A stretch of 32,469 bases of DNA from positions 1-32,469 of the IMG/VR virus record IMGVR_UViG_3300017721_000660; one strand, 5' to 3'. Source of the DNA: a virus (Duplodnaviria > Caudoviricetes). The notes beneath the pieces are model-generated. The model did no database searches. It was given only the letters and a program-made list of their open reading frames with translations, and was not told where the DNA came from. Positions 1-32,469 of this stretch are shown piece after piece (positions within the stretch are counted from its first letter, which is position 1; each line of letters begins with the position of its first letter). A program made the translations under genes and the position numbers.

Positions 1-660
1 ACCGTGCCAGTAGACTAACTGGCCCGCCTCATAGTCGCGGCTAGTGGCCCACGTAGTAGGGAGATCCGCAGACTTGAAGGTGCGCAGATACCCAGTCCCA
101 GTGCTCGTGAGAGACACCAGACCCGTAGGCCCAGAGCTGCTGAACAGCTGGAACCGGCGCGTCGTGAACTCGTCGGTCCCGCCCACAAAATAAGTGTTGC
201 TGCCGCTCACCCCAGCGGGCCAGTCCGTGCCATCTTTATCGACCAGCATCCTGACTTCTGTGTTCGACACGTAGCCGTGGTGTTCTCTACCCACGAAAGC
301 GTCGTTAGCTACGTCAACGGCTAGCGGCGCGTCACCCAGATCAAAAGGGACTGCCCACTTCAGCGCGGCACCTTGCGTGAAGAAGCGCGCCACTGACTGA
401 CCGGCCGCATTGCGGCTGACCTCAACGACCAGACTCTGCCCTGTCGAGTAGATGAAAGGCACGAGCCTCGGCGCCGCTGTCGCTGTCGACGTGGCGACGT
501 GGCGCAGCCCCGGCCGTGTGCGAGCAGGTCCCTGGGGCTTTACGACCCAGTTCTTTAGCTGCGCCGCCCCTGTGCGATACTGCACCGCGTCGGGCCTGCC
601 ATATAGCTCGGGGGCTATCTCGCCCCCTGCAAAAGAGAGCTGCACGGTGCGCGTGTTCAT
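1..660 (-). CDS. Tail tubular protein B / nozzle (BPP-1-like), N-terminal part; runs off the left edge
   Basis: Not in the ORF track. ATG at 660 overlaps the TGA of the upstream gene (ATGA). Translates MNTRTVQLSFAGGEIAPELYGRPDAVQYRTGAAQLKNWVVKPQGPARTRPG with no stop to base 1. QxSFxGGEIxP...N....QG...RPG is the typical N-terminus of podophage nozzle proteins, and the gene follows the adaptor gene. Confidence 0.85.
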   Translation of the reverse strand, partial: MNTRTVQLSFAGGEIAPELYGRPDAVQYRTGAAQLKNWVVKPQGPARTRPGLRHVATSTATAAPRLVPFIYSTGQSLVVEVSRNAAGQSVARFFTQGAALKWAVPFDLGDAPLAVDVANDAFVGREHHGYVSNTEVRMLVDKDGTDWPAGVSGSNTYFVGGTDEFTTRRFQLFSSSGPTGLVSLTSTGTGYLRTFKSADLPTTWATSRDYEAGQLVYWHG

Positions 661-3600
661 CGGCGGTAGGACCCTGGGTTGCTGCGGTGCCGCAAGAAGG
701 TCGGCACGTGATTACTTATGTCGACATCACGCTTGGTGTCGCCGTCGTGCTTGGTCGCGGTGCGGAGTGCGCGCTCGGCCATCCCGGCCGCAGCCACTGC
801 TTTCTTCGACCCCTCTTCGCCCTTAATGACGGCGCCGGCCATGTGGAACACCAAGCGCCAAGCAAGCGCCGACGTGAACGTCGTGCTCCACTTAGTCGGG
901 TCCGTGACTTTGGCCACGTAAAGCATCAGCGCATCGTCGAGGTCAGTCAGCAACACCCGGTCACCGTTGTCGTCGAGCTCGACCGTATACTCATACTGTC
1001 CCGTCGTGCCCATCGTCTTGTAGTTGTAGTCGACATCGGAGCGAACCAAGCCCAGCACTGACGCGACGCCTTCGGGGTAGTCGTATGCGTATTTGTAGTC
1101 TACGCGCGGAGATGCCGAACGCTTAGTCGGCCTCACCGAACGAAGCGCAAAGTCCCACGGGTGGCGCTCGATAAGCTCGTCGCGCGCGAGGGGCAAGAAC
1201 TGCCGGCACAGTTCGGCTTCTCTCGTCGTGTCAGTGTCGACGTTAGTTAAGCGCCCAGGCTCACCCAGGTAAGACAGTGCCATGTTGCAGACTTCCGTCT
1301 CGGTGTAGCCGCTGCGTTCGAGCGCTTTGTATGCAGTGAACGCGCGCTTGCCTAACGTGTCCATCTCTGCCCCGTGGTAGTGGAACCCGTCAGCGTCGGA
1401 GTTGCCGGCGAAGGTGTCTCGTTCGGCGTGCACCTCCAAGTCAGTGCCCACCAACGCGCGGCTGTATGGGTCCGCGGCCGCTTCTGCGTCGATAGCCGCG
1501 TTCACGGTCGCCGCATACGGCCACGCAGTCAGCGTCTCTTTGATCGTGGCGTGTAGCCATTTGATACGCGCGGCCTTGACGGGCGCCAGACCGCGGTCGT
1601 AGAGCGCCTGCCGCACAGACTGCTTGAGACGGTTGAGATTCTGCCGGTAAGTCGAAGCGGTGTATTCGGCCATGGCATCTGCTTCGCCCTGGTTGAAGTG
1701 CACGACCACGTCTTTGATCGTCGAGCCTTCCTCCGTTAGTGCTAGTTTGACCCCGTCGAGGGTGTCTTCCAACCTAGCGAAACACCCGTTCTCTTCGCCC
1801 GGCGCCCAGCTGATCTGTTGGTTCTCATCAAGCCAGCCAAACGTGGAGGCCGTGCCTGTCGGGTGCACTTCTCTGTGGCTGATTGACGTGCCACCAAAAG
1901 CTAACGGGACGAACAGCGTTCGGCGGCCGGTGTAGTTGTATAGGTCGAACGACAACTGTAGCCCGGCTGTTACTCCGGCGGACTGCTGCGACGTTTCTTC
2001 GCCATAGAAGGACCCTACGACGTAGCCGTCGAACGGCATGTAGCGACGCGGTGTCCCGAACTGACTCGGGTAGTTGAAGCCCGGCGGGTGGGGGTTGAAC
2101 CCATTATCGTTGTCGACCGTCTGAGCGTAGTGGGTGCCGCTCCCTGCGGCTGATGTCTGTAGTAGGCTAGGGCCCCCATACGTCTCAGCGATGAATATCG
2201 CGTTGCCCGCAGCTTTTGCTGAGTAGTAAGTCTTGCCGGGGATCAGCCCGTTGGGGAGCTCGCCGGTAGTGAAGAACTGCACCGATGTCTTGAGCGGAGC
2301 GTTGAGGCCAGTGGACACTATCTCGGTCGTCGAGCCCGACGAGATGGTGACAGCGACAGTCCCCGAAGAACGCGCGCCGCGGGCTTTCCCCTCGAAGGGC
2401 GACCAAGGTAACAGCTGGCAGAACTTCTCGAACGGGCGCTCCTGGTCACCTACTGGAGTAGGCTCCAGCACGAACACGTCGTTTCGTTCAGGCGTGCTCG
2501 CCCAGCTACCGTCAAAGTGGACCTGGGACAGGAAGGGAGTGACATCGAAAGTCACGTGCGTTCCGTGCTTCCACTGCCCGAGGTTGGCGCCGGAGACGCA
2601 GCGCAATCTCAAGCCGCTGATTGACCCGTTAAACCGGGCAGTGGTCTGCCATTGCACTGTGCGTGACGCTACTTCGGGTGTCGTCCGGTCGATCTCGTCA
2701 CCCCCACGGACATCAGACACGAACCACATCGTGTATGCGTCAAGACGCTCGACCACCGGCTGCTCCCCGCCCCACGTGTAAGTAGTTGCGGCGCCGCCGA
2801 GCTCCGTCAACGTCAATACTTCCGCACCGGCAGCGAATGCCACTGCGCTCACAAGGTAGTCACCTGCGGGGAGCCCCGCCGGCGCGCTCGAACTCGGGTA
2901 ACTGACCCTGATCTTTTCACCTTGCGTGAACTCAACCGCGACGATGACAGACAGAAAATTATTTACTGCCTGTGAGGCAGTCAACAAAGACGGCACCTCA
3001 ACAGTTGGCTGTCGCGTAGGCCAGCGAACCAGAGCGCCGGCCGCGAACGTGAGCAAGAACGTCTCCCCTGTCCCGGCGAACGAAATCGGAGTGCCGCCAA
3101 GAGTCGCCGCTATCCCCAGCGCGCTGCCGCTAACGCTGACCACGTAGTAGGTCTGTCCTATTGTGATCTCGGCAGGGGTCGAGCCGGGACCCCCCGTAAC
3201 CGGGATCACGGCATCGCCTAGCGCCCAGTAGTTGTCCGCACCAGGGTATCCAACGAGAGACACACCTCCGGTAGTGCAGATTGAAGTGGTGCCACCTCCC
3301 GGCAAGTTAGAGTTTTGGTTGGTCGACTGAATTGCCCGGCCAGCACGTAGCGGCCGTTCGACAGAGTGGAGAACTAGCTTACCGCTCGACTTAGCGAAGC
3401 GCTCAGTCGCTGCCACCAACTCATACTTGCCTTCTACTTGACCACCGAAAAAAGCGTCAAACGACAGCGGCGAAGATGCACTCCCTGCGTCTTTCTGCAA
3501 CCTCATGTCGACGGTAAACTCTTCGTCGTCACTCTGCGCGGGGACGAACGGCGGGTCGACGACTAGGCGTGACCCACCAGTGTTACCCAACCCAGTGGGT

Positions 3601-4343
3601 GCGTATGTGTGAGTTGACCCGGTGCGCTTGCGCGTGATTAAGAACGGCACAGCTGTGTTGTTGACCTTCCACACAGAGACAGTCTGCCCCGTAACCGTGA
3701 GGTCGACGGCCGCGCCTTCCGGCCACGTCTGGATGTCAAAGTCCGCGCCGGCAACGGCAGTGACTTTGAACGGGCCGCGGTTGGCTAGCCCCAGTGCGGC
3801 AAAGTCCGCGCTGAACACTACGATGTCGTTGACCGCGAATGTGGCGGACCCTGTTGACGTAATAGTGTCGCCGCTGATCGACGTAGCAACTCTATGCTCT
3901 CGACCTTGCTGGACAATAAAATTGGTCGCGAACTCTCTCGCCGTGTTCGGAGTCAACGCGTTGGCTGTCGGCACGACATTGTATGTGCCGGGCCAACTCC
4001 GCGCGTAGCCGCCTGTTGTCTGCAACGTGCCGATAGGGTTGTAGAACGTCGCGACGCGGACAGCGTCGACAGCTACACCTCGGAGATTGACTGTCTGCCA
4101 CGTGCCGTTGATGGCGGCGCCATACACCACGCCTGTGTCGCCAACCTGGGGGCCGCCCTTGAACGTAGCCGCGAGAGTGAAGTCATCGCGGTATGAGCCA
4201 GTGCTGAACTGCTTTACTTGCGAGCGCGCGGTGTTAGGTGACCGAATAGCGAGCTCGGGGTGTTTGTCTTCCCACCCTTGGATGTCGCCAACCGGCGAAG
4301 CGTTCGACTGACCAATCTCAAGAACAAGCGTATATTCAACCAT
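657..4343 (-). CDS. Fusion protein: split SGNH/SASA-type esterase with beta-rich repeats plus C-terminal tail tubular protein A (adaptor)
   Basis: 1228 aa. SGNH blocks: IGQSNA (aa 10-15), AFGGTSI (about aa 815-821), HFNQGEADA (about aa 882-890), DGFH (aa 985-988). From aa 1013, EVCNMALSYLGE...ARDELIERHPWDFA...YAYDYP...LYVAKVTD...FTSALAWRL matches podophage tail adaptor proteins. Confidence 0.8.
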   Translation of the reverse strand: MVEYTLVLEIGQSNASPVGDIQGWEDKHPELAIRSPNTARSQVKQFSTGSYRDDFTLAATFKGGPQVGDTGVVYGAAINGTWQTVNLRGVAVDAVRVATFYNPIGTLQTTGGYARSWPGTYNVVPTANALTPNTAREFATNFIVQQGREHRVATSISGDTITSTGSATFAVNDIVVFSADFAALGLANRGPFKVTAVAGADFDIQTWPEGAAVDLTVTGQTVSVWKVNNTAVPFLITRKRTGSTHTYAPTGLGNTGGSRLVVDPPFVPAQSDDEEFTVDMRLQKDAGSASSPLSFDAFFGGQVEGKYELVAATERFAKSSGKLVLHSVERPLRAGRAIQSTNQNSNLPGGGTTSICTTGGVSLVGYPGADNYWALGDAVIPVTGGPGSTPAEITIGQTYYVVSVSGSALGIAATLGGTPISFAGTGETFLLTFAAGALVRWPTRQPTVEVPSLLTASQAVNNFLSVIVAVEFTQGEKIRVSYPSSSAPAGLPAGDYLVSAVAFAAGAEVLTLTELGGAATTYTWGGEQPVVERLDAYTMWFVSDVRGGDEIDRTTPEVASRTVQWQTTARFNGSISGLRLRCVSGANLGQWKHGTHVTFDVTPFLSQVHFDGSWASTPERNDVFVLEPTPVGDQERPFEKFCQLLPWSPFEGKARGARSSGTVAVTISSGSTTEIVSTGLNAPLKTSVQFFTTGELPNGLIPGKTYYSAKAAGNAIFIAETYGGPSLLQTSAAGSGTHYAQTVDNDNGFNPHPPGFNYPSQFGTPRRYMPFDGYVVGSFYGEETSQQSAGVTAGLQLSFDLYNYTGRRTLFVPLAFGGTSISHREVHPTGTASTFGWLDENQQISWAPGEENGCFARLEDTLDGVKLALTEEGSTIKDVVVHFNQGEADAMAEYTASTYRQNLNRLKQSVRQALYDRGLAPVKAARIKWLHATIKETLTAWPYAATVNAAIDAEAAADPYSRALVGTDLEVHAERDTFAGNSDADGFHYHGAEMDTLGKRAFTAYKALERSGYTETEVCNMALSYLGEPGRLTNVDTDTTREAELCRQFLPLARDELIERHPWDFALRSVRPTKRSASPRVDYKYAYDYPEGVASVLGLVRSDVDYNYKTMGTTGQYEYTVELDDNGDRVLLTDLDDALMLYVAKVTDPTKWSTTFTSALAWRLVFHMAGAVIKGEEGSKKAVAAAGMAERALRTATKHDGDTKRDVDISNHVPTFLRHRSNPGSYRR

Positions 4344-4648: not shown

Positions 4649-5143
4649 TTAAGTGCTCGTGCTTGCGGGGTAGATGCGCGGCGTGGTGCTCGTGTCGAGC
4701 GTCAGTTTGGTCGTGACTTTACCGTTACTGAACGCGCCTTCGCCGCCCGTGACGGTGTATTTCAGCCCGAAGTATCGGCGGCCGTTCAATACGCTCGTCG
4801 GGGTGCCGTCGTGCGCGTAGATCGTGAAGTCTTCACCCCAACGGTAGAAACCGAGAGCAAAGAAATACTGCGAGTGAAGCGTCAGATTGGCTGCCAGCAA
4901 CCCAGGAGCTACGACGATCTCTTGCGCGTTCGTCGTCAGCGCGGCGTTGTCTGCGACAACCCCCGTGACGGTGAGCGTTTCGCCACCGGCAAAGTCCACG
5001 CTCACGACCTGCATTTGCAGGAAGAGGGGCGTCCCTTCTCCGAGGTCGCGAACGTCCTCTAAGTCGATCACGTTCGTCGAGTTGGCGGTAGCCGTGATTG
5101 CTTGCGCTTCTGATAAGCGCCAGTTGTGTTCAATGTATGCCAT
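4649..5143 (-). CDS. Capsid cement/decoration protein, Bbp16-like (paralog 2)
   Basis: 164 aa. LSEAQAITATANSTNVIDL...DLGEGTPLFL...RRYFGLKYTVTG...GKVT are hallmark Bbp16-family jelly-roll motifs. Confidence 0.85.
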   Translation of the reverse strand: MAYIEHNWRLSEAQAITATANSTNVIDLEDVRDLGEGTPLFLQMQVVSVDFAGGETLTVTGVVADNAALTTNAQEIVVAPGLLAANLTLHSQYFFALGFYRWGEDFTIYAHDGTPTSVLNGRRYFGLKYTVTGGEGAFSNGKVTTKLTLDTSTTPRIYPASTST

Positions 5144-5159
5144 TTGTGGATCCTATAAG

Positions 5160-5181
5160 GCGGGCTGCCGAAGCAGCCCGC
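5160..5181 (-). promoter_or_regulatory. Perfect 9-bp hairpin with a C(UUCG)G tetraloop between the two cement genes (weak terminator or RNA stabiliser)
   Basis: Minus strand reads GCGGGCTGC-TTCG-GCAGCCCGC then CTTATAGG; there is no true U-tract. Confidence 0.6.
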
Positions 5182-5187
5182 TACGGG

Positions 5188-5745
5188 TTAGACGACGAAG
5201 CCCGACCGGTGGAAGTGCTTCAGACCTTGGACACCAGTGTCCTTGCCAATCGTCAACCACGCCTGCACCTTGCCCTGCGTGAAGGCGTTGGAGCCGTCAG
5301 TGTTGGTCGCCTTCAGTGAGATGAAGTTGTGCGTTCCTGCACCGTCTAGGTCGACCTCCAGCGGCTTCAACGGGATCAAGATTGCGTTGGCGGCCGCCGG
5401 TTGCAAGATGCCGACATCGTTGGTCGCGCTGTCCGCTACGGTTAGATCCGCGCAACTGAACGCCTGCGTCTCACCGACGCGATACGGGGTCCCGCCGCCA
5501 GCGTTGTCGGTAGCCAAGAGAACGTCAAAGCGCAAGTCGGCTGCATTACCGCCGGCAGAGGTGAACGACTCGACGACGTTAATCGCCACCCACAAGTCCT
5601 GGCCGCCGCCGATGTCGTCCCACGACGTTACACCAGAAGGGAGCGTGATCGCGTCTGGTCCGTAAGCAACGCCGTCAGCCGCCAAGGCCCCGAGGTCCCA
5701 GTCGGATGACCGGGTAAAGTTTAAGTGATGGTCACGAATTGCCAT
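5188..5745 (-). CDS. Capsid cement/decoration protein, Bbp16-like (paralog 1)
   Basis: Start reassigned to ATG 5745, which has an AGGAGG RBS right after the capsid stop; 185 aa. MAIRDHHLNF...DIGGGQDLWVAINVVESFTSAG...FTQGKVQAWL. Confidence 0.8.
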   Translation of the reverse strand: MAIRDHHLNFTRSSDWDLGALAADGVAYGPDAITLPSGVTSWDDIGGGQDLWVAINVVESFTSAGGNAADLRFDVLLATDNAGGGTPYRVGETQAFSCADLTVADSATNDVGILQPAAANAILIPLKPLEVDLDGAGTHNFISLKATNTDGSNAFTQGKVQAWLTIGKDTGVQGLKHFHRSGFVV

Positions 5746-5755
5746 TTCATTCCTC

Positions 5756-6805
5756 CTAGGAAACCACGTCTTCAGTGTTGAGGATCGCGTCGCAACGACG
5801 GATCGGAATGCCCATGAAGGACAGGTATTGGCGCGCCGTGCCGTAGCTCGACAAACCCTGCTCAATCGTCAGGACTGAGGACTGCTTCTCCATCGCCATG
5901 CGCGACAGCGCGCTGTGAACCGTCCGGTTCATGTAGAACGCCGGCTTGCACATACCCAGGTTCGGGACGCGGTAGATCGCCTCCGCCATCTGGTGGATGA
6001 TGTTGGTGGTGTATGCGGTCATCGCCTGTTTGCCAGTGAAACCGGCGAGTTCGCTGACCATGATGTTGCATACGCGCGCGGCGTAGCGCCAATCCTTCAC
6101 GACCAAGCCCATCTTCCAGCAGAACCAGTCGACGAGCGCCTGCATCTTGCCGGTGTAGGTGCCAGTGCCATCAGCAGCAGAGAAGATGTCGACCGATTGC
6201 TCGCCGAGATCCTTTTGCTCCAGGCCGGCGGAGCTCCCCTTCGGGAACACAAAGTGGCAGGTCTCGTCAGACCAACCGATCAGGTAGATCGAAGTCTGCG
6301 CACCGCCGCCGGTGCCTTCGCAGTCGAAGATGTTTTGCGCGTTGCCCGCGGACAGCGAGCTGTAGCGCGGGGCGATACCCATGAACTTCTCAGGGTTAGC
6401 GGCCGTGTTCCCGTAGAACATCGTGGTCGCCATCTCTTGGTTCATGGCTTCGAGGCGCATGCGCGCTTCTGACAGGCGCAAAGCGCGCTCGTCGTCTTCA
6501 AGGCTGGCGAGCGCAATGTCGACCTCAGAACGTGACTCCAGCATGCCGATGCCTTCGTCGATCTGTGCCGTCGTGCCGTGGCTCGGGTAGACGCCTTGGT
6601 TGACTTGGCGCCAGTAAACGTCCGGCAGGCCGGTCGCGACGGTCACACGGTGTGATGTCGGGCCGTTGGCCATCTTGAAGACGCCGTCGTCGAGGATCTC
6701 GTTCGACTGCGAGAGAATGTTCGCGATGTCGGCCATGGAGCCGTTCGGGTCGCGACGCTTGGCCCAGTCGGCCAAAGTGAGATTAGTGGTTGGAAGAGTT
6801 GCCAT
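5756..6805 (-). CDS. Major capsid protein (Bbp17-like, HK97 fold)
   Basis: 349 aa. LTLADWAKRRDP...ILSQSNEILDD...TGLPDVYWRQVNQG...FYGN...GLVVKDWRYAARVCNI...FMGIPIRRCDAILNTE. Confidence 0.93.
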   Translation of the reverse strand: MATLPTTNLTLADWAKRRDPNGSMADIANILSQSNEILDDGVFKMANGPTSHRVTVATGLPDVYWRQVNQGVYPSHGTTAQIDEGIGMLESRSEVDIALASLEDDERALRLSEARMRLEAMNQEMATTMFYGNTAANPEKFMGIAPRYSSLSAGNAQNIFDCEGTGGGAQTSIYLIGWSDETCHFVFPKGSSAGLEQKDLGEQSVDIFSAADGTGTYTGKMQALVDWFCWKMGLVVKDWRYAARVCNIMVSELAGFTGKQAMTAYTTNIIHQMAEAIYRVPNLGMCKPAFYMNRTVHSALSRMAMEKQSSVLTIEQGLSSYGTARQYLSFMGIPIRRCDAILNTEDVVS

Positions 6806-8409: not shown

Positions 8410-8688
8410 TCACAGCTGCTTCAGAATCAAAGCGGTGCAGACAGGGAGCAGCCCCCCGACCAAACCATACACACCACACTTGAGCTTGAGTGTGTTGACA
8501 TCTAACGCCAACCGCTGCAAGTCAGCCTGCGTGGCATTCTCTACGACTTGCCTGTTGCCACGTTCGTGCTTCAGCGCGCTGTCTACTCGGTTGCCTAGTT
8601 TCTCGACGCTCTCGTCGAGGCGCCGCAGCTCGTTCAAAACCAGTTTTTGGTAGTCTCGCCACCCGTTATTACCTGTGTCGCCCGTCAT
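8410..8688 (-). CDS. Coiled-coil protein with a C-terminal membrane anchor (XhlA/holin-like)
   Basis: 92 aa. Heptad-like LNELRRLDESVEKLGNRVD, then hydrophobic GVYGLVGGLLPVCTALIL at the C-terminus. Confidence 0.6.
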   Translation of the reverse strand: MTGDTGNNGWRDYQKLVLNELRRLDESVEKLGNRVDSALKHERGNRQVVENATQADLQRLALDVNTLKLKCGVYGLVGGLLPVCTALILKQL

Positions 8689-10412
8689 CGCGCTGTTGTT
8701 CTTGTAGTTGTGAATCTGTGCCAGTCAATCCGCAGCTCACGCTCAGTAGTGCCTGCGGTCTTATCAATACGGAAACCGATACCCATACGATCAGTGTTCG
8801 TCGGGATGTTACTCTCGTGACTCGCCTTTTGCACTCCGTCGATGTAGTAAGCAATCGAGGCTCCGTCAGCAGGCACTACGATCTTGAGCACAACAAAGGT
8901 TGTGTCATTACCTACCGGTGCTGTCGTCGTGACGGTCTTAGTTTCAGTGCCATTCCTGGCCGTTGCCGCGACCCAGTAGTCACCGTCAACCGAGCGCCTG
9001 TAGATCCAGTATGCGTAATCTGTTTCTGTCCCCGCGCCTCGATTGAACTTGTTGCTGAAGCCAAACGTAGCGTTGTATTCGTCGTCTTCATCAGACAACG
9101 CTTGCAGGTTTATTCGCGATTCAAAGGTGTAGGCTGTCTCGTTGTTAAACACGAGCGAATCGTTCCACGAGAATATCGCGTAGCGACCCGACGTGCCCGT
9201 GCCTGTTCTTAACTCAACCGCACCTGTTGCGTTGCTTGTGTCGTTGATCGTCTCCCACGATGTAGCAAAGCCACCACCGCTACCGTTTTTAGACCAGCCT
9301 AACGCATCGGTGTCAGGAACTAAGTAGTCCTCGAACCACACGCTGTGTAACTCGGTGTTGCCTACGTCAATAACTTGACGCATAGCCTCGGCGGTAGTCG
9401 CCGCGATTAGCGTTCGCGCAAGTGAAGTAAGCGTGGCTTGGCTGAACGTGTCAGTGCCCGTGCTGTAGGGGACTTTATCGGCGCCGGTAGCCACGCCCGC
9501 CAGCGCAACCAAAGTCGCGTCCGCAATCTTAGCCAGGGTGACTGCGTCGTCGGCTATCTTCGCAGAGCTCACCGCATCGTCGGCTATCTTCGCGGAGCTC
9601 ACCGAATCGTCGCGGGGGACACCCAGGTCTTGAGCCAACGTGTTGAGCGCCGTTTTGACGCTCATACCAGACGATAGCGGGGCGTTCATCGTGGCCCCGA
9701 GCGTCGTGTCTGTCGTCGAGGACACACCCAGTAGCGCGACCAGTTGATTGTTCTGGTCGTTCACGCGGCCGGCGCCCATAACGACAGCCCACCCGTTGCT
9801 GTCGTGCAGGCGTGAGACAACCGCAATTTGCTGAACAAACTGCGTAGAACCTGCTGGTCGCGTCTTAGTGAATCCGCCGGCGGTGCCACTCACGTAGAGT
9901 GGGTCGCCGTCGTCGTAGGTTGCGTCAGGCAATGCGAGGTTACTCACGACGCCAGCAGCGACCACGTGCCCTTCTGCGTTATCCGCAATGTCTGCTTGCA
10001 CGAAACCGAGCGCCGGCATCTTGGCCGCGTCGTCCGCGTCGGCTAACGCGACAAGAGGCTTGCCGCTACTGTGAGATCCTGACGCATAAACGATAGCGTT
10101 CCGGTCTAGTTTGGCGCCTGTTTCGTTGCGCACTTCGACAAGCACGAGACCGCCCGCACCTGCGTCGCCGGGCACCCATGCTCCGATAGTCGCGTTATAT
10201 ACCAGCGCCTGCTCGTCGGTAGGTGCAGCCGTATCGAAGTCAACGTCCGACAAGCCGCCAAGCGACGTAGCAAAGCCGGAGCGGCGTAGGTGGCGGCGCA
10301 ACTCAGGGCCCGCTATAGGGAGCGCGCCCGCTTGGTCAATAATTGACTTGCCGCGACCTTCGTTTGGCTGGGGGATACGGCCGAAGTTACCTTCCCCATT
10401 GCGCCGACGCAT
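8685..10412 (-). CDS. Fibre/spike protein with repeats and a C-terminal beta-sandwich (lectin/LamG-like) domain
   Basis: 575 aa. LSDV...PTDEQALVYN...WVP fibre motif; VALADAD...PALG...DIAD capsid-fibre-like segment; DDxVxxAKIA repeats; Trp/Tyr/Thr-rich beta C-terminus. Confidence 0.7.
   Translation of the reverse strand: MRRRNGEGNFGRIPQPNEGRGKSIIDQAGALPIAGPELRRHLRRSGFATSLGGLSDVDFDTAAPTDEQALVYNATIGAWVPGDAGAGGLVLVEVRNETGAKLDRNAIVYASGSHSSGKPLVALADADDAAKMPALGFVQADIADNAEGHVVAAGVVSNLALPDATYDDGDPLYVSGTAGGFTKTRPAGSTQFVQQIAVVSRLHDSNGWAVVMGAGRVNDQNNQLVALLGVSSTTDTTLGATMNAPLSSGMSVKTALNTLAQDLGVPRDDSVSSAKIADDAVSSAKIADDAVTLAKIADATLVALAGVATGADKVPYSTGTDTFSQATLTSLARTLIAATTAEAMRQVIDVGNTELHSVWFEDYLVPDTDALGWSKNGSGGGFATSWETINDTSNATGAVELRTGTGTSGRYAIFSWNDSLVFNNETAYTFESRINLQALSDEDDEYNATFGFSNKFNRGAGTETDYAYWIYRRSVDGDYWVAATARNGTETKTVTTTAPVGNDTTFVVLKIVVPADGASIAYYIDGVQKASHESNIPTNTDRMGIGFRIDKTAGTTERELRIDWHRFTTTRTTAR
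9520..9612 (-). repeat. Three 30-nt tandem repeats encoding DD(S/A)V(SS/TL)AKIA
   Basis: TCGTCGGCTATCTTCGC(A/G)GAGCTCACCG occurs twice with a 30-nt period, plus a diverged third copy. Confidence 0.85.
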
Positions 10413-12109: not shown

Positions 12110-12439
12110 TTACTCTCCTAGTAGTGCTGCGGTGCCGAGACGCAAAGCCTCTGGGTCGACGCCACCGGCGCCACTCATACGGGAACGGTTCATCGTGCCG
12201 ACCGCGTCTTCTTCTGCCTGAAGAATCGCAGTGGGGTCCGCCATCTCACGATCAGCGGCCGCCGTCTCCATGGCTTCTTCACGCTTCTGCGAAACCATCG
12301 ACGATTCAGCGGCAGCCTGCTGCTCCTGTTGACGCGCACGACCACGTTTAGCCTCCGTCTGTTGCATCCGCGCCTGCCCTGCGCCTGCGCCAGCGGCGAT
12401 AACTGCTCCAATAATTGCACCTACTCCTGCACTTACCAT
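12110..12439 (-). CDS. Small virion-associated protein with a Gly/Ala-rich N-terminal helix and Gln-rich coiled coil
   Basis: 109 aa ending ...LRLGTAALLGE, like small genes that precede BPP-1-type portal genes. Confidence 0.65.
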   Translation of the reverse strand: MVSAGVGAIIGAVIAAGAGAGQARMQQTEAKRGRARQQEQQAAAESSMVSQKREEAMETAAADREMADPTAILQAEEDAVGTMNRSRMSGAGGVDPEALRLGTAALLGE

Positions 12440-12885
12440 TCGATCTGCTCCTCGTAAAACACTTCAAACTTCTTGAACCGGTCCTTGCTGTCGAGCACGC
12501 GCTCGAACGCAGTCCCTGCCTTAGCACCCCACAGCACCGACGTGGCAGTTAGTGAACGTGCGGCGCGAGAAAAAGCGCCCATCAGCTGTTCACAGGTAGC
12601 TGCGTTACGGTGGTCGGGGTCGATGTAAAAGACATCGACCTGCGCATAGCACCAGCTCTGGTGTTGTATGTGCTTGTCGATGAAAAACCCGGCGACGTAG
12701 CCAACGAGCGCTTCGCCCGCCCAGGCCCCGAACACCAGCAGCTTGTGCGCGTCCTCTGCCAAGGAATACACAGACCAGTCAATGTCGAGCTCGCGGTGGC
12801 CAGTCTCCTGCCCGTTCGCTGCCAGCAGCGCCGCGCCCTGCTCTCGCAAGTCGCAGCACCTGAGTCTGTCTACTCGGATGTCCAC
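12433..12885 (-). CDS. GNAT-fold acetyltransferase-like protein
   Basis: 150 aa. LDIDWSVY...ALVGY...VDVFYIDPDHRN...LMGAFSRAARSL resembles GNAT motif A, although the usual R-G-x-G is degenerate. Confidence 0.7.
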   Translation of the reverse strand: MDIRVDRLRCCDLREQGAALLAANGQETGHRELDIDWSVYSLAEDAHKLLVFGAWAGEALVGYVAGFFIDKHIQHQSWCYAQVDVFYIDPDHRNAATCEQLMGAFSRAARSLTATSVLWGAKAGTAFERVLDSKDRFKKFEVFYEEQIEW

Positions 12886-13121
12886 TACCAGAGGGCGATT
12901 GTGTTTACCGGGACGGTGCCCACGCCCTTGGCCTGGATCTCAAGGACGGTGCCCACAGGCACCGCGGTGAAGGCGACGGTAGTGCCATCAGTCAGCACTA
13001 CGTTTACCGTGCCGCTAGTTGCGATGTAGAGTGCCGAGCATGGGTTTGCGAATGTCGTGTCGGAAGTTGCCGCGGACGCGTGGACGTAACGAGCTCTTGT
13101 TGTGCTTGCGAAGTCAGCCAT
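12885..13121 (-). CDS. Small beta protein resembling the head spike base protein (RcGTA Rcc01079 family)
   Basis: 78 aa. SDTT...CSALYIATSGTVNV...GTTVAFTAVPVGTVLEIQAK.V...TIALW follows the family pattern as I recall it. Confidence 0.7.
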   Translation of the reverse strand: MADFASTTRARYVHASAATSDTTFANPCSALYIATSGTVNVVLTDGTTVAFTAVPVGTVLEIQAKGVGTVPVNTIALW

Positions 13122-16560: not shown

Positions 16561-16753
16561 CGACGGTTCTGTAGAACCGTCGCCCGTTAACGGGCTACCG
16601 ACGCACAGGCCCTAAAGTAGCCCGTTGTAGCCCGTCACGGGCGACAAACCACTACCACACAAGCACTTGTAGCCTGTTGCGCATCGTCGCCCGTTGCTCG
16701 CCCGTTGGTGTCTGAAGGTGTCCAATCGTATTTGTCGCCCGTTAACGGGCGAC
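16561..16753. repeat. Iteron/palindrome cluster, putative replication origin
   Basis: Non-coding. About 10 GCCCGTT-like units in both orientations; palindromes at 16582-16595 and 16734-16753 (20 bp); 10-bp inverted repeat at 16561-16582. Confidence 0.65.
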
Positions 16754-16762
16754 GATTTTGAC

Positions 16763-27801: not shown

Positions 27802-28058
27802 ACACCACCACGAAGTTTGCAGAGCTCGTCGACCGGGCGTCTGTGTATGACCGGATCGAGACCGAACGGCCTATGCCCAAGCGCGCCGTGGCCAAAGAGC
27901 TCGGCATATCACGCGCCCACCTCTACGCTCTGATGGCGGCGAAGCATGCACCCATGCCGCACATCAAAGCGCGCTTGATTCGGGGGTTCTCTAAGATGAC
28001 GGGCCTGAAGCCGGGCACTGTCCGGCGGTGGCTCGAAGCCGACTGGGAAGTGCTCTAG
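27798..28058 (+). CDS. HTH DNA-binding protein
   Basis: 86 aa. KRAVAKELGISRAHLYALM is an Xre/Cro-like HTH; ATGA overlap with the polymerase gene. Confidence 0.75.
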   Translation: MNTTTKFAELVDRASVYDRIETERPMPKRAVAKELGISRAHLYALMAAKHAPMPHIKARLIRGFSKMTGLKPGTVRRWLEADWEVL

Positions 28059-31000
28059 CGCCGCCCCGTGAAAGCGGACATGCCCGCGGGCTCGATCTTC
28101 TCTTCGTCGAATATGTCGAATCCGCGGCGCAGGCGCTGCGTTAGCACGTGGAGCGGTATGCCGACCATCTTAGCCGCGAGCTCAAGTGAGTTGAGCACGT
28201 CGGATCTGTCGGCACCGTCTTTTATGAGGTTTGCTGCGGTGCGACCTAGCTGGTCGATGATGGCGATGGCTGCCGGCGCCGGCATACGTTGCTGGTAGGT
28301 GAGGTCGCGAGACAGTGACGGCACGACGAGCGGGATAGCTTGCGCGGCCACCGTGCCCCCGAAAGCGCCGACAGGGCCGAGCGCGCGAGGCAAGGCCAGC
28401 GCCGTCATCAGCAACGGGTCGATCAGCCACGTATCGAGCGCGTCCTTCTCTTCGTCCTCTTCGGCGCGGAAAGCCGTCGCGATGAGCTCGCCCATGAACA
28501 GCGTGAAGAAGCCGGCCATGGCCTCCTTGGACATGACCACGCGCAAGACCCACATGGCGCGGGTGCCTTCGTCTTGGCGCTTGGTGAGTGACGCGCGGCG
28601 CATTGCCGAGGCCCTCATCGAGCCGAGCGACAGGAACCAGGACAAGAACTGCGTCCACATCTTGGCGAAGCGGCCGCCCTTCTCAACCTTCGCCATCGAA
28701 GTGACTGCGGTGTCCGCTTGCGTGCGCCTGACGGCGCCGTCGGCTGCGTTGACTGCTTGGCTGTCGCCCTTACCTTCATCGAGGGCCTGCGCGTATGCGC
28801 CACGCCACACGATCAGGTCGACCGGGTGCTGGATGATCTCCTGCATCCAGTAGGTGTTCTTAGATAGCCATCGCTGGGCTTCCTTCAGCGACTGGAACTT
28901 GCCCGACTCGACAAGGTTCAGCACGCGGTTCTGCATCTCGAACGCAGAGACGCCGAGCTTGTGTCGCGTCGCCATGAACGCCGACAGCTTGTAGATGTCT
29001 GCCTTGGTGTGGCCTCCACTCATGCCCTCCATGAGATAGCGCATCTTGACCTGCCCCGACATGCTGGCGAGCATGACACCAGTCACGCCCTGCATCGAGT
29101 TGACCACGTTGGCGAACATCGCGGCCGTGCCGTAGTTCGATCGCAGCTTGTCGACGAAGTCGATACCGTCGAGCATGTCGGCGCCGCGAGCACTGACTAG
29201 CGTGCTCGACAAAGTGGCCGCGGTCTCCATGAACGGGTCGAGGATGTTCTTGTAGATGCCAGGAGACATACGCTCAAGCAATGCCTCCACGTCCCGCTGG
29301 CGGAGCAGCGTGGCCACCTTCTTATGCGCCGGGCCCATCTGCGCGAAGATGATCGACTGCCGGAAGTGCATGATTTGGTTGATCGGGTTGATGTCCAGCG
29401 GGTCCGGGTCTGGCTCATCGACGCGGTTCTTTGTGTGCCCCTTGTTGATCGTGGCGATGGATCGCTGGAAACCCAGCAGGGTGTCTTGCGCGTTGCGCTC
29501 CCCCTTCGGCGAGCGCAGATCAGCGTCGCGTCCTGCCGGCACGTAGCCCCCGCGCACGTCAACGACGGTGCCGTCGGCCATCGCACGTTGTTTGAGCACG
29601 GGCATGCCCTTGTCCACGAGCTCCATGCGGCGCCCGAGCATGCTGTAGTGTGCTTCCTGCGTCATCGGCAGGAGCTCCTCTTCGTAGATGTCCCAGACTC
29701 CTTGGCAGAACTCCCAGTCTGCGGCCGTGATCACGCCGGCTTCTTCCCATTGGCGCACCTGCTCCCACCACCGGGTCGCGTCAATGCTGCCGTCGGGGCG
29801 GAGTGTGGCCCAGCCGAAGCCGAGCAGCAGGCGCCGAAGGTTCGACTCGTTACCGCAGTGCAGGAGCATCCCGAGGATGTCCATCTTGCCGTTATCCAGC
29901 ACGTCTGGGTCTTCGGTCTTCTGCGTCCTATCGGGCAGCAGCGCGGCGCCTGTGGCGTCTGTGCCCGTAGTGATCGGCCGCGACAGCTCGGCGCTTGCGC
30001 CGACTTCGTCGCGCACCCGGCGCAGCAGGGGCTCCAGCTTCTCGATCACGGCCGCTAGGTTGAGCTCGACCTGATCCTCTGCCTTGCGGAGAGGCACGAA
30101 GATCAGCTGGGACAGCAAGCCCTGTTCGTCGCCGTCCATAGCGTAGAGCAGGGCCTCGACCCGCTGGGTCGTGTAGTTCCACTGGCGGATCTTACCCTTG
30201 ATCGTGCCCCGCATAGACTTGTCTGACTTGCGTGACTTCTCTGGTGTCGCCTCGGCCTCGACCTGCTCGCGCAGGCGCCGAAGGATCTCGTCCAACTGAG
30301 CGCTCCGACCTTCGAGCTCGAACACGCGGGCCCACTTACCCTGCTGCAATACGCCTTCCACGTATTCGAGCGACTCCATTGCCTGCTCGACAGTCTGCTG
30401 CATGAGCGCGCCGTCCGTCGAGATCACGGACTGTATGTCGCCGAGCGCCTGCTCTAGCGACTGGCGCTCGGGGTCCGCCTCGTTTAGCCCAGTCCATGGG
30501 TCTCCCTGACTGCGGAGGCCAGAGCCGACCTCTACGCCTAGCAGGTCAAGCATCAACCTTGCCGTCTCGACAGTGGCGCCTCCATAGTTCTGAGCGAGTG
30601 TGTCCTCGCGCTTGCCGTTGCCGGGTCGATACTTCAGCCGAGAGCGCAGCCGGTCCTGGTGCTTCTCTAGCACCTCGCGCATCTTCACGGCCTCGTTCGC
30701 CATGGCGCGGAAGTAGAGCGCCGTCCGTTGGTGCAGCCCGACTTGCGTAGGATCGCCGCGGTGCAGTAAGGCTTTCTTCTCTGCGCGGCGGGCCTGCTCG
30801 GTAAACTTGCGGACCACGTTCTTGCGCCCGAACAATTCGCCGGCCGTCAGCGCGCTAACATCTTGCCTCGCGATCTCCTTGGCTACGCGCACCATCTCTC
30901 GATACGACGGGGGCAGCTTCCCGAGCAGTTTGATCTCCGCGGCGCGTAGCTTAACGAGGGCCTCGTTACTGAGCGACGCGTCGATCTCGTATTGCATCTG

Positions 31001-32469
31001 CTCTGGGTTCGCTAGGTGCGGCACCTCAGCGAGCATGCGTTCGTCGGTCGCGTCGTTGACCATGTTGGTCAGCGCCGCGCCGGCCGAGTCACCCGAGAGT
31101 GTGTATTTAACGCTGCCCGCTTGAGCCTCGCGCTGCTGGCGCTCCTCGCCGACCAACGCACGGCGGAGCTCGTCGAACATGGTGTCGGCCGAGCTGTAGC
31201 CCAGGTCTTGCGCAAACTCCTCGACATCGGTGATCTCTGCTTGCTCCACGTTGTCTGTTCGGTAGCGCTCAGGCACGCGCTCGTCAGTGGTCAAGAACGC
31301 ACGCAGCCGCTTACCTTCAACGCCGGCGGCGCCCTTCTTGGCTACCGCGACGCGCTTCTCTTCCTTCTCGATAGCGGCTTCGGCCTGCTTAACTTCAGAC
31401 CGCAGGGCCTTGAGCTCGTCTTTTGCCGCAGTGCCTGTGCTCGCCAACCCCTGGATCTGCGCTTCGGTGTCCGCAAGGAAAGCTATCGTTTGGTCGACCA
31501 GCCCCTGGTTGGGTGTCGCCGCTTTACGCAGCGTGGCGAGCATCTTCTTTTCTGCCGCGAGGTCGGCACGTAGACGTGCCAGTTCAGTCTTTGTGTTAGC
31601 GACGGTGGCGTCGAGCTCAGGCTGGCGCTCAGTGAGCTCTTTGCTCCGCTCGTCCCGCTCTTCCATCGCGATGCGCAGCCGCTCCATGGCGCCGTCGAGC
31701 CGCATCTGTAGCGAGGCTTGGCTGACCGTGCCGTTCGCGTTCAGGAGCTCGCCAGAGCTCAGGAAATTGAGTATCCGCCCGATGCGGTCGGTGCGTGCGA
31801 TGCGATTCCGTTCCTCTGCCTCGCGCTTCTTGCGTTCTGCACGGCTGCTACGTTGTAGCTTGCGCGCTGCGCGGCCGCGCAGGGTTCGCAGCTTCTTGAG
31901 CTCTGTCATAAGGACGGCGCGCAGCTTCTCCTTGGCCTCGCGTTCGTGGTCGAACACGAGCTCTTGGAGCAGGATCTTGTCGAGCTCGTCTAGGTCGTCG
32001 GTATCGGTCACGCGCAGGAGCCGGCCGATTGCCTCTTCGCGAATGCGCAGTTCGATCTCTTCCTCGGCGGCTAGCCATCTGTCGAACACCTGTCGGACAT
32101 CGTCGTTGAGCTCCGGCAGCGTCTCCACCTCCTCTACCGTGATCACGAGGTTTCCGTCTTCGTCAAACTGTTCGGGTGGCGCCGGCTTGCGGCTGGCAAA
32201 CTCATCCTCGTAGTTGCGCGTTACGCTTTCGCGCACCTTCCGGTAGACCCGCAAGATCGCTTTCGACAGTCGACCAAAGACACCACTCAATTCTTCGGAT
32301 GGTGCCTTGCCCTCATACATGTATATCTCGAAGTTGTATGCGACGGCCTCGTGCATCTGCCGGCGGGCTTCTGCAGGTGCCGTGATGTAATCTTCGAGAC
32401 TACTGAACTGGTCCCCGCCGAACTCGTCGACCAGGATTGACATGTCGCGCAGCTGCTCAGGGCTGGCCA
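28055..32469 (-). CDS. Very large internal virion/DNA-ejection protein, 3' part; the frame is open to the right edge
   Basis: More than 1470 codons with no stop upstream of ATG 32443. Helical throughout. HEAVAYNFEIYMYEGKAPS..L..VF near the edge, long coiled coils, and C-terminal WRGAY...ADGAVRRTQ...WTQF typical of podophage ejection/polyvalent proteins. Confidence 0.75.
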   Translation of the reverse strand, partial: ASPEQLRDMSILVDEFGGDQFSSLEDYITAPAEARRQMHEAVAYNFEIYMYEGKAPSEELSGVFGRLSKAILRVYRKVRESVTRNYEDEFASRKPAPPEQFDEDGNLVITVEEVETLPELNDDVRQVFDRWLAAEEEIELRIREEAIGRLLRVTDTDDLDELDKILLQELVFDHEREAKEKLRAVLMTELKKLRTLRGRAARKLQRSSRAERKKREAEERNRIARTDRIGRILNFLSSGELLNANGTVSQASLQMRLDGAMERLRIAMEERDERSKELTERQPELDATVANTKTELARLRADLAAEKKMLATLRKAATPNQGLVDQTIAFLADTEAQIQGLASTGTAAKDELKALRSEVKQAEAAIEKEEKRVAVAKKGAAGVEGKRLRAFLTTDERVPERYRTDNVEQAEITDVEEFAQDLGYSSADTMFDELRRALVGEERQQREAQAGSVKYTLSGDSAGAALTNMVNDATDERMLAEVPHLANPEQMQYEIDASLSNEALVKLRAAEIKLLGKLPPSYREMVRVAKEIARQDVSALTAGELFGRKNVVRKFTEQARRAEKKALLHRGDPTQVGLHQRTALYFRAMANEAVKMREVLEKHQDRLRSRLKYRPGNGKREDTLAQNYGGATVETARLMLDLLGVEVGSGLRSQGDPWTGLNEADPERQSLEQALGDIQSVISTDGALMQQTVEQAMESLEYVEGVLQQGKWARVFELEGRSAQLDEILRRLREQVEAEATPEKSRKSDKSMRGTIKGKIRQWNYTTQRVEALLYAMDGDEQGLLSQLIFVPLRKAEDQVELNLAAVIEKLEPLLRRVRDEVGASAELSRPITTGTDATGAALLPDRTQKTEDPDVLDNGKMDILGMLLHCGNESNLRRLLLGFGWATLRPDGSIDATRWWEQVRQWEEAGVITAADWEFCQGVWDIYEEELLPMTQEAHYSMLGRRMELVDKGMPVLKQRAMADGTVVDVRGGYVPAGRDADLRSPKGERNAQDTLLGFQRSIATINKGHTKNRVDEPDPDPLDINPINQIMHFRQSIIFAQMGPAHKKVATLLRQRDVEALLERMSPGIYKNILDPFMETAATLSSTLVSARGADMLDGIDFVDKLRSNYGTAAMFANVVNSMQGVTGVMLASMSGQVKMRYLMEGMSGGHTKADIYKLSAFMATRHKLGVSAFEMQNRVLNLVESGKFQSLKEAQRWLSKNTYWMQEIIQHPVDLIVWRGAYAQALDEGKGDSQAVNAADGAVRRTQADTAVTSMAKVEKGGRFAKMWTQFLSWFLSLGSMRASAMRRASLTKRQDEGTRAMWVLRVVMSKEAMAGFFTLFMGELIATAFRAEEDEEKDALDTWLIDPLLMTALALPRALGPVGAFGGTVAAQAIPLVVPSLSRDLTYQQRMPAPAAIAIIDQLGRTAANLIKDGADRSDVLNSLELAAKMVGIPLHVLTQRLRRGFDIFDEEKIEPAGMSAFTGRR

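Follow-up and report, generated by a model that had tools for sequence, protein, structure and literature searches.

A predicted split SASA-type esterase joined to the head-tail adaptor in an uncultured podophage and its relatives

Head-tail adaptors are usually viewed as small passive rings, and those of podophages are stand-alone proteins of about 200–220 amino acids (aa). The locus described here raises the question of what such an adaptor is doing at the end of a protein with 1012 aa ahead of the adaptor domain. The DNA analyzed (the “window”, 32,469 nucleotides (nt) in all) is a linear virus record, IMGVR_UViG_3300017721_000660 of IMG/VR, estimated to be 74% complete. Positions 657–4343 on its minus strand carry a 1228-aa open reading frame (ORF), whose product, P0001, is read here as a predicted split SASA esterase, a long insert and an adaptor in a single chain. 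An earlier note, made from the sequence alone, had proposed such a fusion, with an esterase divided by a glycan-binding stalk and displayed in up to twelve copies at the virion neck. The ORF is real; the other parts of that proposal fared unequally and are taken up below with the evidence that bears on them.

The left arm of the window encodes, in order on the minus strand, terminase, portal, scaffold, major capsid protein, two Bbp16-like proteins, the 1228-aa ORF and nozzle. This is the layout of BPP-1-like podophages, with P0001 in the adaptor slot. The slot is marked upstream by the major capsid gene and the two Bbp16-like genes (4649–6805, minus strand); on the other side, the nozzle gene (1–660, minus strand; phrog_376), which is truncated by the window end, overlaps the P0001 stop codon (ATGA). 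As in podophage adaptors generally, the domain is present in single copy between the capsid genes and the nozzle, and in all five complete relatives the single phrog_394 match lies inside a long ORF.

The adaptor itself spans aa 1013–1228 (657–1307, minus strand). It matches phrog_394 over aa 1014–1220 (profile positions 3–188 of 190, E value 9.6e-34) and, in the Protein Data Bank (PDB), the Carin-1 connector 8ck1_E (E value 1.1e-11); identity to BPP-1 Bbp14 is about 29%. Residues 1013–1200 of an AlphaFold2 model superpose on 8ck1_E over 183 aa at 1.8 Å (Z 21.8). The C-terminus is thus a complete adaptor of about 216 aa, as the earlier note had it, matched in sequence and in fold over the whole domain. 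In sequence, fold and gene slot it resembles the podophage adaptors as a group (Carin-1 connector 8CK1_E, BPP-1 Bbp14 and the epsilon15/phiV10 tail protein; phrog_394).

The sequence motifs of an SGNH esterase of the SASA type were found where the note had placed them: block I (GQSN) at aa 11–14, block II (GGTSI) at aa 817, block III (QGE) at aa 885 and block V (DGFH) at aa 985–988. Residues 1–120 (3984–4343, minus strand) hold the first strand and block I with its conserved flanks, including Ser13, the predicted nucleophile (4305–4307, minus strand). The C-terminal esterase half, aa 745–1010 (1314–2111, minus strand), holds block II (GGTS, nt 1881–1895), block III (QGE, nt 1683–1691) and block V, Asp985-x-x-His988 (1380–1391, minus strand). 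Pfam SASA (PF03629) scores 28 bits on aa 811–928, above its cut-off of 24.8. Residues 1–771 were matched by nothing in Pfam, PHROGs or NCBIfam, and no fibre-anchor family in Pfam or PHROGs matched P0001.

The AlphaFold2 model covers aa 1–1200 and was built from an alignment of 75 sequences; it has a mean predicted local distance difference test score (pLDDT) of 90.2 and a predicted template-modelling score (pTM) of 0.87. By rigid superposition, model residues 3–1009 align with 1ZMB 1–228 (221 aa, 2.0 Å, Z 24.1), residues 2–1010 with 2APJ 20–260 (224 of 241 aa, 2.2 Å, Z 23.8) and residues 1–1011 with NanS, 3PT5 (259 aa, 3.1 Å, Z 21.9). All three superpositions start at model residues 1–3, and the N-terminal strand and residues 745–1010 are accordingly predicted to form one SASA/CE6 esterase domain. 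In 2APJ the GQSN serine is residue 31 and the DxxH motif is at 235–238. From the end offsets of the superposition, Ser13 falls on Ser31 and Asp985 and His988 on Asp235 and His238, provided that the terminal segments are ungapped. A Ser13-His988-Asp985 catalytic triad is therefore predicted, as is O-acetylesterase activity of the domain. The modelling that the earlier note had called for thus brings the two halves together in one domain, while the pairing of Ser13 with His988 rests on superposition offsets with ungapped ends assumed.

Conservation was assessed over 126 aligned rows that are 23–71% identical to P0001. The serine is retained in 117 rows and the histidine in 122. Ser, His and Asp are kept together in 100 rows and Ser and His only in 17; Ser without His occurs in none. 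Among the nine rows that lack Ser, four also lack His and seven lack Asp, so that His is lost only where Ser is lost. Note that the rows are related to one another, and Fisher values for this coupling are overstated. Judged from their residues, the members without Ser are probable pseudo-esterase collars. They are L008, L012, L013, L014, L048, P0032, P0037, P0105 and P0118, several of which also lack His or Asp.

A fusion of this kind could in principle arise if two genes had been joined by an assembly or sequencing error, and one member, L056:1–350, has a frame break within its esterase half, which shows that errors or breaks do occur in the family. The L056 break lies just past the NPxPPGFNY motif and may be an assembly error or a real split; a second cluster (P0224; cf. 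P0223) begins at the same Met. For P0001, however, the esterase–adaptor junction near nt 1310 is spanned in four of four runs from three studies, with no insertion or deletion listed there. This support comes from assembled contigs rather than raw reads, and run X1 is possibly the source of the window. When proteins of 675–2149 aa were searched with the adaptor region, 13 were retrieved, all with the same layout, the other 12 being 36–70% identical to P0001. Across 55 viral loci retrieved with the alignment of these proteins, the esterase half and a podophage adaptor share one frame in 36 (one of them identical to the window's protein and one with a frame break upstream); the C-terminal domain is of another kind in 14, and contig ends cut the remaining five. 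Because the fusion layout is conserved in this way, an artefact is refuted as an explanation, and we give it next to no weight. The fusion recurs in dozens of uncultured phages.

The combination had been said in the earlier note not to be known from described phages, and this held. Compared with 50,697 deposited phage records, the esterase half gave one match, at an E value of 0.1, which was taken as chance, and none of 117 INPHARED matches covers 80% of the esterase-plus-adaptor query. No description of an SGNH esterase fused to an adaptor was found in the literature searched, in which supplements were not covered. Two UniProt entries, A0A516LTA4 and A0A516LMG1, appear to be members of the P0001 family, and two scans of GTDB genomes, with patterns from A1 and A5, found no relative. 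With runs holding a share under 0.2 excluded, the two best holders of the window's sequence are marine metagenomes. Among 20 proteins the sole organism name was that of an Ilumatobacteraceae metagenome-assembled genome, for P0009; it is not taken as the host, because binning alone does not tie a phage contig to the organism it was binned with.

Block I and block II are 806 aa apart in P0001 and 92 aa apart in 2APJ, a net insert of about 710 aa. The earlier note had described some 800 aa of beta-rich repeats; the large separation stands, but only four repeats of about 70 aa are present, and the rest consists of conserved beta domains without the repeat and of pieces of the esterase fold. Repeats 1 (aa 153–219; 3687–3887), 2 (aa 369–426; 3066–3239), 3 (aa 455–530; 2754–2981) and 4 (aa 663–741; 2121–2357), all on the minus strand, are putative beta-barrels. 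The repeat profile finds these four copies in P0001, zero to six per family member, and copies in the neighbouring nozzle proteins as well. The conserved NPxPPG motif lies 224 to 1023 aa from block I in 191 sequences, and farther away with more copies of the repeat.

The repeats also vary. In closely related strains, repeat 1 is replaced in frame in runs X3 and X5 (joint 3691–3901, 209 nt to 215 nt) and repeat 2 in run X3 (joint 3047–3274, 226 nt to 235 nt), in each case with like flanks. Identity to the 12 relatives is 21–51% across repeats 1–3, 37–84% in the catalytic half and 38–90% in the adaptor. Such swaps and such low repeat identity form the pattern that would be expected of a host-facing module.

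The fold of the repeats was compared using a separate model of aa 448–750 (pTM 0.41). Its matches were the FCCH domain of UBA1 (residues 214–297, to repeat 4, Z 6.8), phage tail-tube domains (Z 7.2 and 6.7), K1 capsule lyase (6.6) and endosialidase (6.0), the tail-tube, lyase and endosialidase barrels being the best matches of repeat 3 at Z 6–7. A Foldseek search with this model gave no match at an E value of 0.001 or better. The E1-FCCH-like lead, which is clearest for repeat 4, consists of a Pfam E value of 0.17 in 1 of 13 proteins, an Atlas lead of 0.79 and the match to UBA1. A small beta-barrel fold class is plausible for these models of the insert repeats; the “glycan-binding stalk” of the earlier note stays conjectural, since the repeats match small beta-barrels only at Z below 8. 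The insert's two conserved beta domains were also compared as possible copies of one another, and this was not supported (hhalign probability 0.3%).

Relatives that lack the podophage adaptor are not free enzymes; they are fused to other C-terminal domains. The C-termini of L019, L037 and L049 are Ad1 (phrog_477, E values 1e-30 to 1e-36), and the genes that come after the L019 fusion are those for head closure, Neck1, terminator and tube. L042 and P0059 end in an adaptor of the lambda gpW type (phrog_2545, E values 4e-8 and 1.5e-4); the L042 fusion sits between a lambda gpA terminase and a lambda portal, and L050 has the same slot without a profile match. A third set (L018, L034, P0058, P0065 and P0084) has C-termini that are putatively Mu gp36-like. 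In L018 and L034 this is a 160-aa domain for which Mu gp36 is the sole lead (Atlas 0.90, to clusters that are 29% and 11% PF07030), and phrog_26 (Neck1) follows it in L034. These tails had no match in Pfam, PHROGs or the PDB profile search; a Mu gp36-like adaptor is the candidate carrier of the split esterase there.

An esterase-only profile retrieved 54 proteins longer than 482 aa, 51 of them with an adaptor (36 podophage, nine Ad1, five Mu-like and one gpW); the remaining three are weak matches to SASA proteins of contiguous layout. Of 225 distinct sequences, 215 end in one of the four tails, in a pool biased to the podophage type by earlier queries. At 104–482 aa no free-standing split esterase was found among the best 7999 candidates scored, which is weak evidence of absence; the four matches in this range were a fragment on an 882-nt contig, two proteins consisting of an esterase half plus adaptor, and one weak contiguous SASA protein. 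A tree of 117 catalytic halves (quick search only) needs 14 changes of adaptor label, against a minimum of four, and pairs one podophage-type protein with one of the gpW type at a value of 100 in the Shimodaira-Hasegawa-like approximate likelihood ratio test (SH-aLRT). This indicates repeated exchange of the esterase between adaptor types, in a direction that the tree does not give. On these comparisons the esterase module behaves as a portable cassette on the N-terminus of several unrelated adaptor families, and the enzyme arm would have moved between unrelated neck types. Three further proteins (P0126, P0158 and P0159) have an N-terminal arm of about 500 aa on a podophage adaptor, with a weak match to dextranase (1OGM, E value 0.0018), which suggests that the adaptor's N-terminal slot accepts more than one kind of enzyme.

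Each ingredient has precedent, and the combination was not found in the literature or the deposited phage genomes searched. The SASA/CE6 O-acetylesterases CAC0529 (1ZMB), At4g34215 (2APJ) and E. coli NanS (3PT5) share GQSN, GGT, QGE and DxxH with P0001 and are its best structural matches (Z 22–24). The solved members are contiguous, about 230 aa long and have no adaptor, so the split is a difference of layout and not of chemistry. Discontinuous SGNH domains that refold as one unit are described for CE20 (XacXaeA 7KMM and Fl8CE20_II, Z 18–19 to the P0001 model; PMC12313940), and its variable beta insert is proposed there to shape the substrate cleft. In the CE20 enzymes of that paper the insert follows the oxyanion residue Gly199, the motif reads DxH and the domain is bordered at both ends by beta-sandwiches (PMC12313940); in P0001 an insert of ~700 aa separates block I from block II, the motif reads DxxH and the chain opens directly with the first strand.

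Virion-borne SGNH proteins are known as well. For SGNH fibres of phages, esterase activity and a use in recognizing the host are proven (PMC13123978). O-acetyl groups are removed by G7C gp63.1 and by two fibres of Klebsiella prophages, and a serine esterase on the virion is proposed to de-acetylate surface polysaccharide for infection (PMC13123978); the tailspike of cyanopodophage Pan3, 9VYH, is grouped with these fibres and spikes. SGNH receptor-binding proteins have been described before (PMC13123978; bioRxiv 10.64898/2026.05.12.724579). Such fibres and spikes are separate proteins, whereas the anchor of P0001 is its own C-terminal neck adaptor. A fused anchor is described for phi24B gp84, a NanS-like SASA esterase joined, as in P0001, to a virion-anchoring domain; as described, it sits on capsid hexons via DUF1737 and is proteolytically processed, and is not a neck protein (bioRxiv 10.64898/2026.04.10.717836).

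Additions to adaptors also have parallels. The adaptor of roseophage R4C has an N-terminal immunoglobulin (Ig) domain, about 106 added non-enzymatic residues (PMC10276861). Vibrio phage VP2 gp14 has 741 aa, with the adaptor at aa 5–144 and a C-terminal extension, unlike the N-terminal arm of P0001. These two show that adaptor rings tolerate added domains. KP32 TTPA is an adaptor credited with polysaccharide-degrading activity (PMC5440376); it has no added enzyme domain.

Solved podophage adaptors form a twelve-membered ring below the portal (PMC13730344). By analogy, P0001 would form a twelve-membered adaptor ring under the portal in which every subunit holds its esterase outside the ring, and the virion would wear a neck collar of up to twelve esterase arms displayed outward. 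The arms would bind and de-O-acetylate host surface polysaccharide, and the collar could be the phage's principal means of recognizing its host, with the variable barrels in the loop from block I to block II doing the tuning. In two complete close relatives no fibre or spike gene follows the ejection-protein genes, and all fibre-like genes are confined to the stretch from portal to scaffold, which makes the collar the foremost candidate for first contact with host polysaccharide. We consider a neck collar that de-O-acetylates host polysaccharide and also serves host recognition somewhat better than an even prospect. From the inference in the earlier note, the fused discontinuous esterase on a podophage adaptor survives, through the model, the superpositions, the coupled conservation of the triad and the absence from deposited records; the glycan stalk stays conjectural, and the statement on Met is wrong. 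A bolder version is that the portable cassette, on any adaptor (Bbp14-type, Ad1, lambda gpW-type or Mu gp36-like), is a further kind of host-recognition device alongside head fibres and tail fibres or spikes, with a twelve-arm collar replacing tail fibres in these podophages and host range shifted by barrel swaps; this we hold only tentatively, as something rather short of an even chance.

Several points weigh against a collar with these two roles. Nine of the 126 rows lack Ser and 17 more lack Asp at His−3, and some lineages would therefore manage without catalysis; a GG is present at block II in only 45 rows. Every structural match of the barrels is below Z 8 (best 7.2). The window has a fibre-like gene (8685–10412) and a head-spike base gene, and its nozzle bears the same barrel as the collar, so that receptor binding may in fact belong to the products of those genes or to the nozzle. 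In the long-tailed relatives a neck protein is distant from the cell, and the authors of the R4C study judged the extra domain of that adaptor unlikely to act in adsorption (PMC10276861). The enzyme activity and the substrate of the collar are predictions.

These points lend themselves to other explanations. If the esterase fold served as a lectin-like collar, gripping acetylated glycans with weak or incidental catalysis, then the Ser-less rows would be accounted for: they keep the fusion, four of them lack His as well, and they fall in separate parts of the quick tree. The absence of Asp at His−3 in 24 rows and the variability of block II fit equally. But P0001 retains all four blocks, and the persistence of Ser, His and Asp in 100 of 126 rows at 23–71% identity is hard to explain without selection for chemistry; we regard such a collar as unlikely. 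The active collar may, on the other hand, be an accessory that clears away acetylated exopolysaccharide or particles, holds the virion to them or stiffens the neck, with the nozzle or a separate fibre recognizing the receptor. The same module does occur on the necks of phages that have tail-tube and terminator genes, in which neck and tail tip are far apart; there are also a fibre-like gene and nozzles with the barrel, and the N-terminal Ig domain of R4C contacts the capsid (PMC10276861). In-frame barrel swaps in near-identical strains point instead to host-facing selection, and neither of the two complete close relatives examined has a fibre gene in the usual late position, which makes an accessory role improbable in our estimate.

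The ring may also hold fewer than twelve arms. The earlier note had stated that no Met precedes the adaptor; this is wrong, as Met994 (1362–1364, minus strand) is in frame 19 codons ahead of the adaptor domain, in the last esterase helix (aa 991–1008), and is a possible though unsupported internal start. Because Met994 is in frame, a mixed ring has to be entertained, in which a short adaptor, made from this start or by proteolysis, fills most places, and only some subunits retain the enzyme or the enzyme is lost from the ring. Most of 31 fusions derived from loci have an ATG 25 codons ahead of the conserved Cys of the adaptor, all 31 have some start codon in that stretch, and the virion SASA esterase phi24B gp84 is cleaved off its capsid-binding domain (bioRxiv 10.64898/2026.04.10.717836). 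Set against this, no Shine-Dalgarno-like word precedes Met994 (a weak point, since many starts of this phage lack one), and the residue is Met in only 50 of the 126 rows and corresponds to the site of Gln244 in 2APJ. The catalytic His and the first helix of the adaptor are 30–32 aa apart in the majority of the long members closest to P0001, and 33–45 aa apart in more distant ones; so nearly constant a separation suggests that the joint is rigid. To us, therefore, a mixed or trimmed ring also seems a minor prospect, and a collar of up to twelve esterase arms is preferred.

In many uncultured phages of aquatic habitats, then, the adaptor would bear an enzyme arm of a thousand residues. Should the collar de-acetylate host polysaccharide, the receptor-binding proteins of these phages escape any annotation that considers fibres and spikes alone. 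The family is also a natural series in which one esterase would accept inserts of ~200 to 1000 residues in one loop, and the adaptor N-terminus would be able to display large domains at fixed valency.

Several polyproteins with tandem phrog_394 domains were noted among the 150 best representatives. Three copies are present in P0046, P0082, P0083, P0124, P0133 and P0135, four in P0073, P0121 and P0143, five in P0063, P0134 and P0141, six in P0049 and P0107, and eight in P0144. Three, four or six copies could tile a twelve-membered ring; five and eight could not. In P0094 (1530 aa) and P0103 (1407 aa), four tandem adaptors are followed by a pectate-lyase-like tailspike region, and we read these two as a spike attached to ring subunits that are already linked in one chain.

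Among the neighbouring genes, the nozzles of the family are 1000–1430 aa long, compared with a profile of 712 positions, and many share the collar's beta-barrel repeat (L004, L005, L008, L014, L017 and others, and that of the window). The fibre-like gene at 8685–10412 (minus strand), between portal and scaffold, encodes 575 aa and matches phrog_2631 (E value 1e-13). Its slot varies across relatives; G001 has a LamG-domain protein in that region. A 78-aa gene adjoining terminase (12885–13121, minus strand) matches the RcGTA head-spike base family NF048002 above cut-off and was found in one of five relatives; it and the fibre-like gene may be paired as a head fibre. A GNAT acetyltransferase gene (12433–12885, minus strand), between terminase and portal, is conserved in G001 and G002. 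It is an acetyl-adding gene in a phage with a putative acetyl-removing collar.

The ejection protein of the relatives is 3300–3600 aa long; the G001 copy (L105:3789–14066) bears a polyvalent-protein ADP-ribosyltransferase domain, LPD22 and LPD23, and its homologous end in the window is at 28055–32443. There are no tRNAs in the window, and no notable DNA repeats lie within or immediately upstream of the P0001 gene. In the gap beyond the primase gene (16575–16757), a self-complementary word of 20–24 nt is present in two copies 155 nt apart, possibly an origin or an operator.

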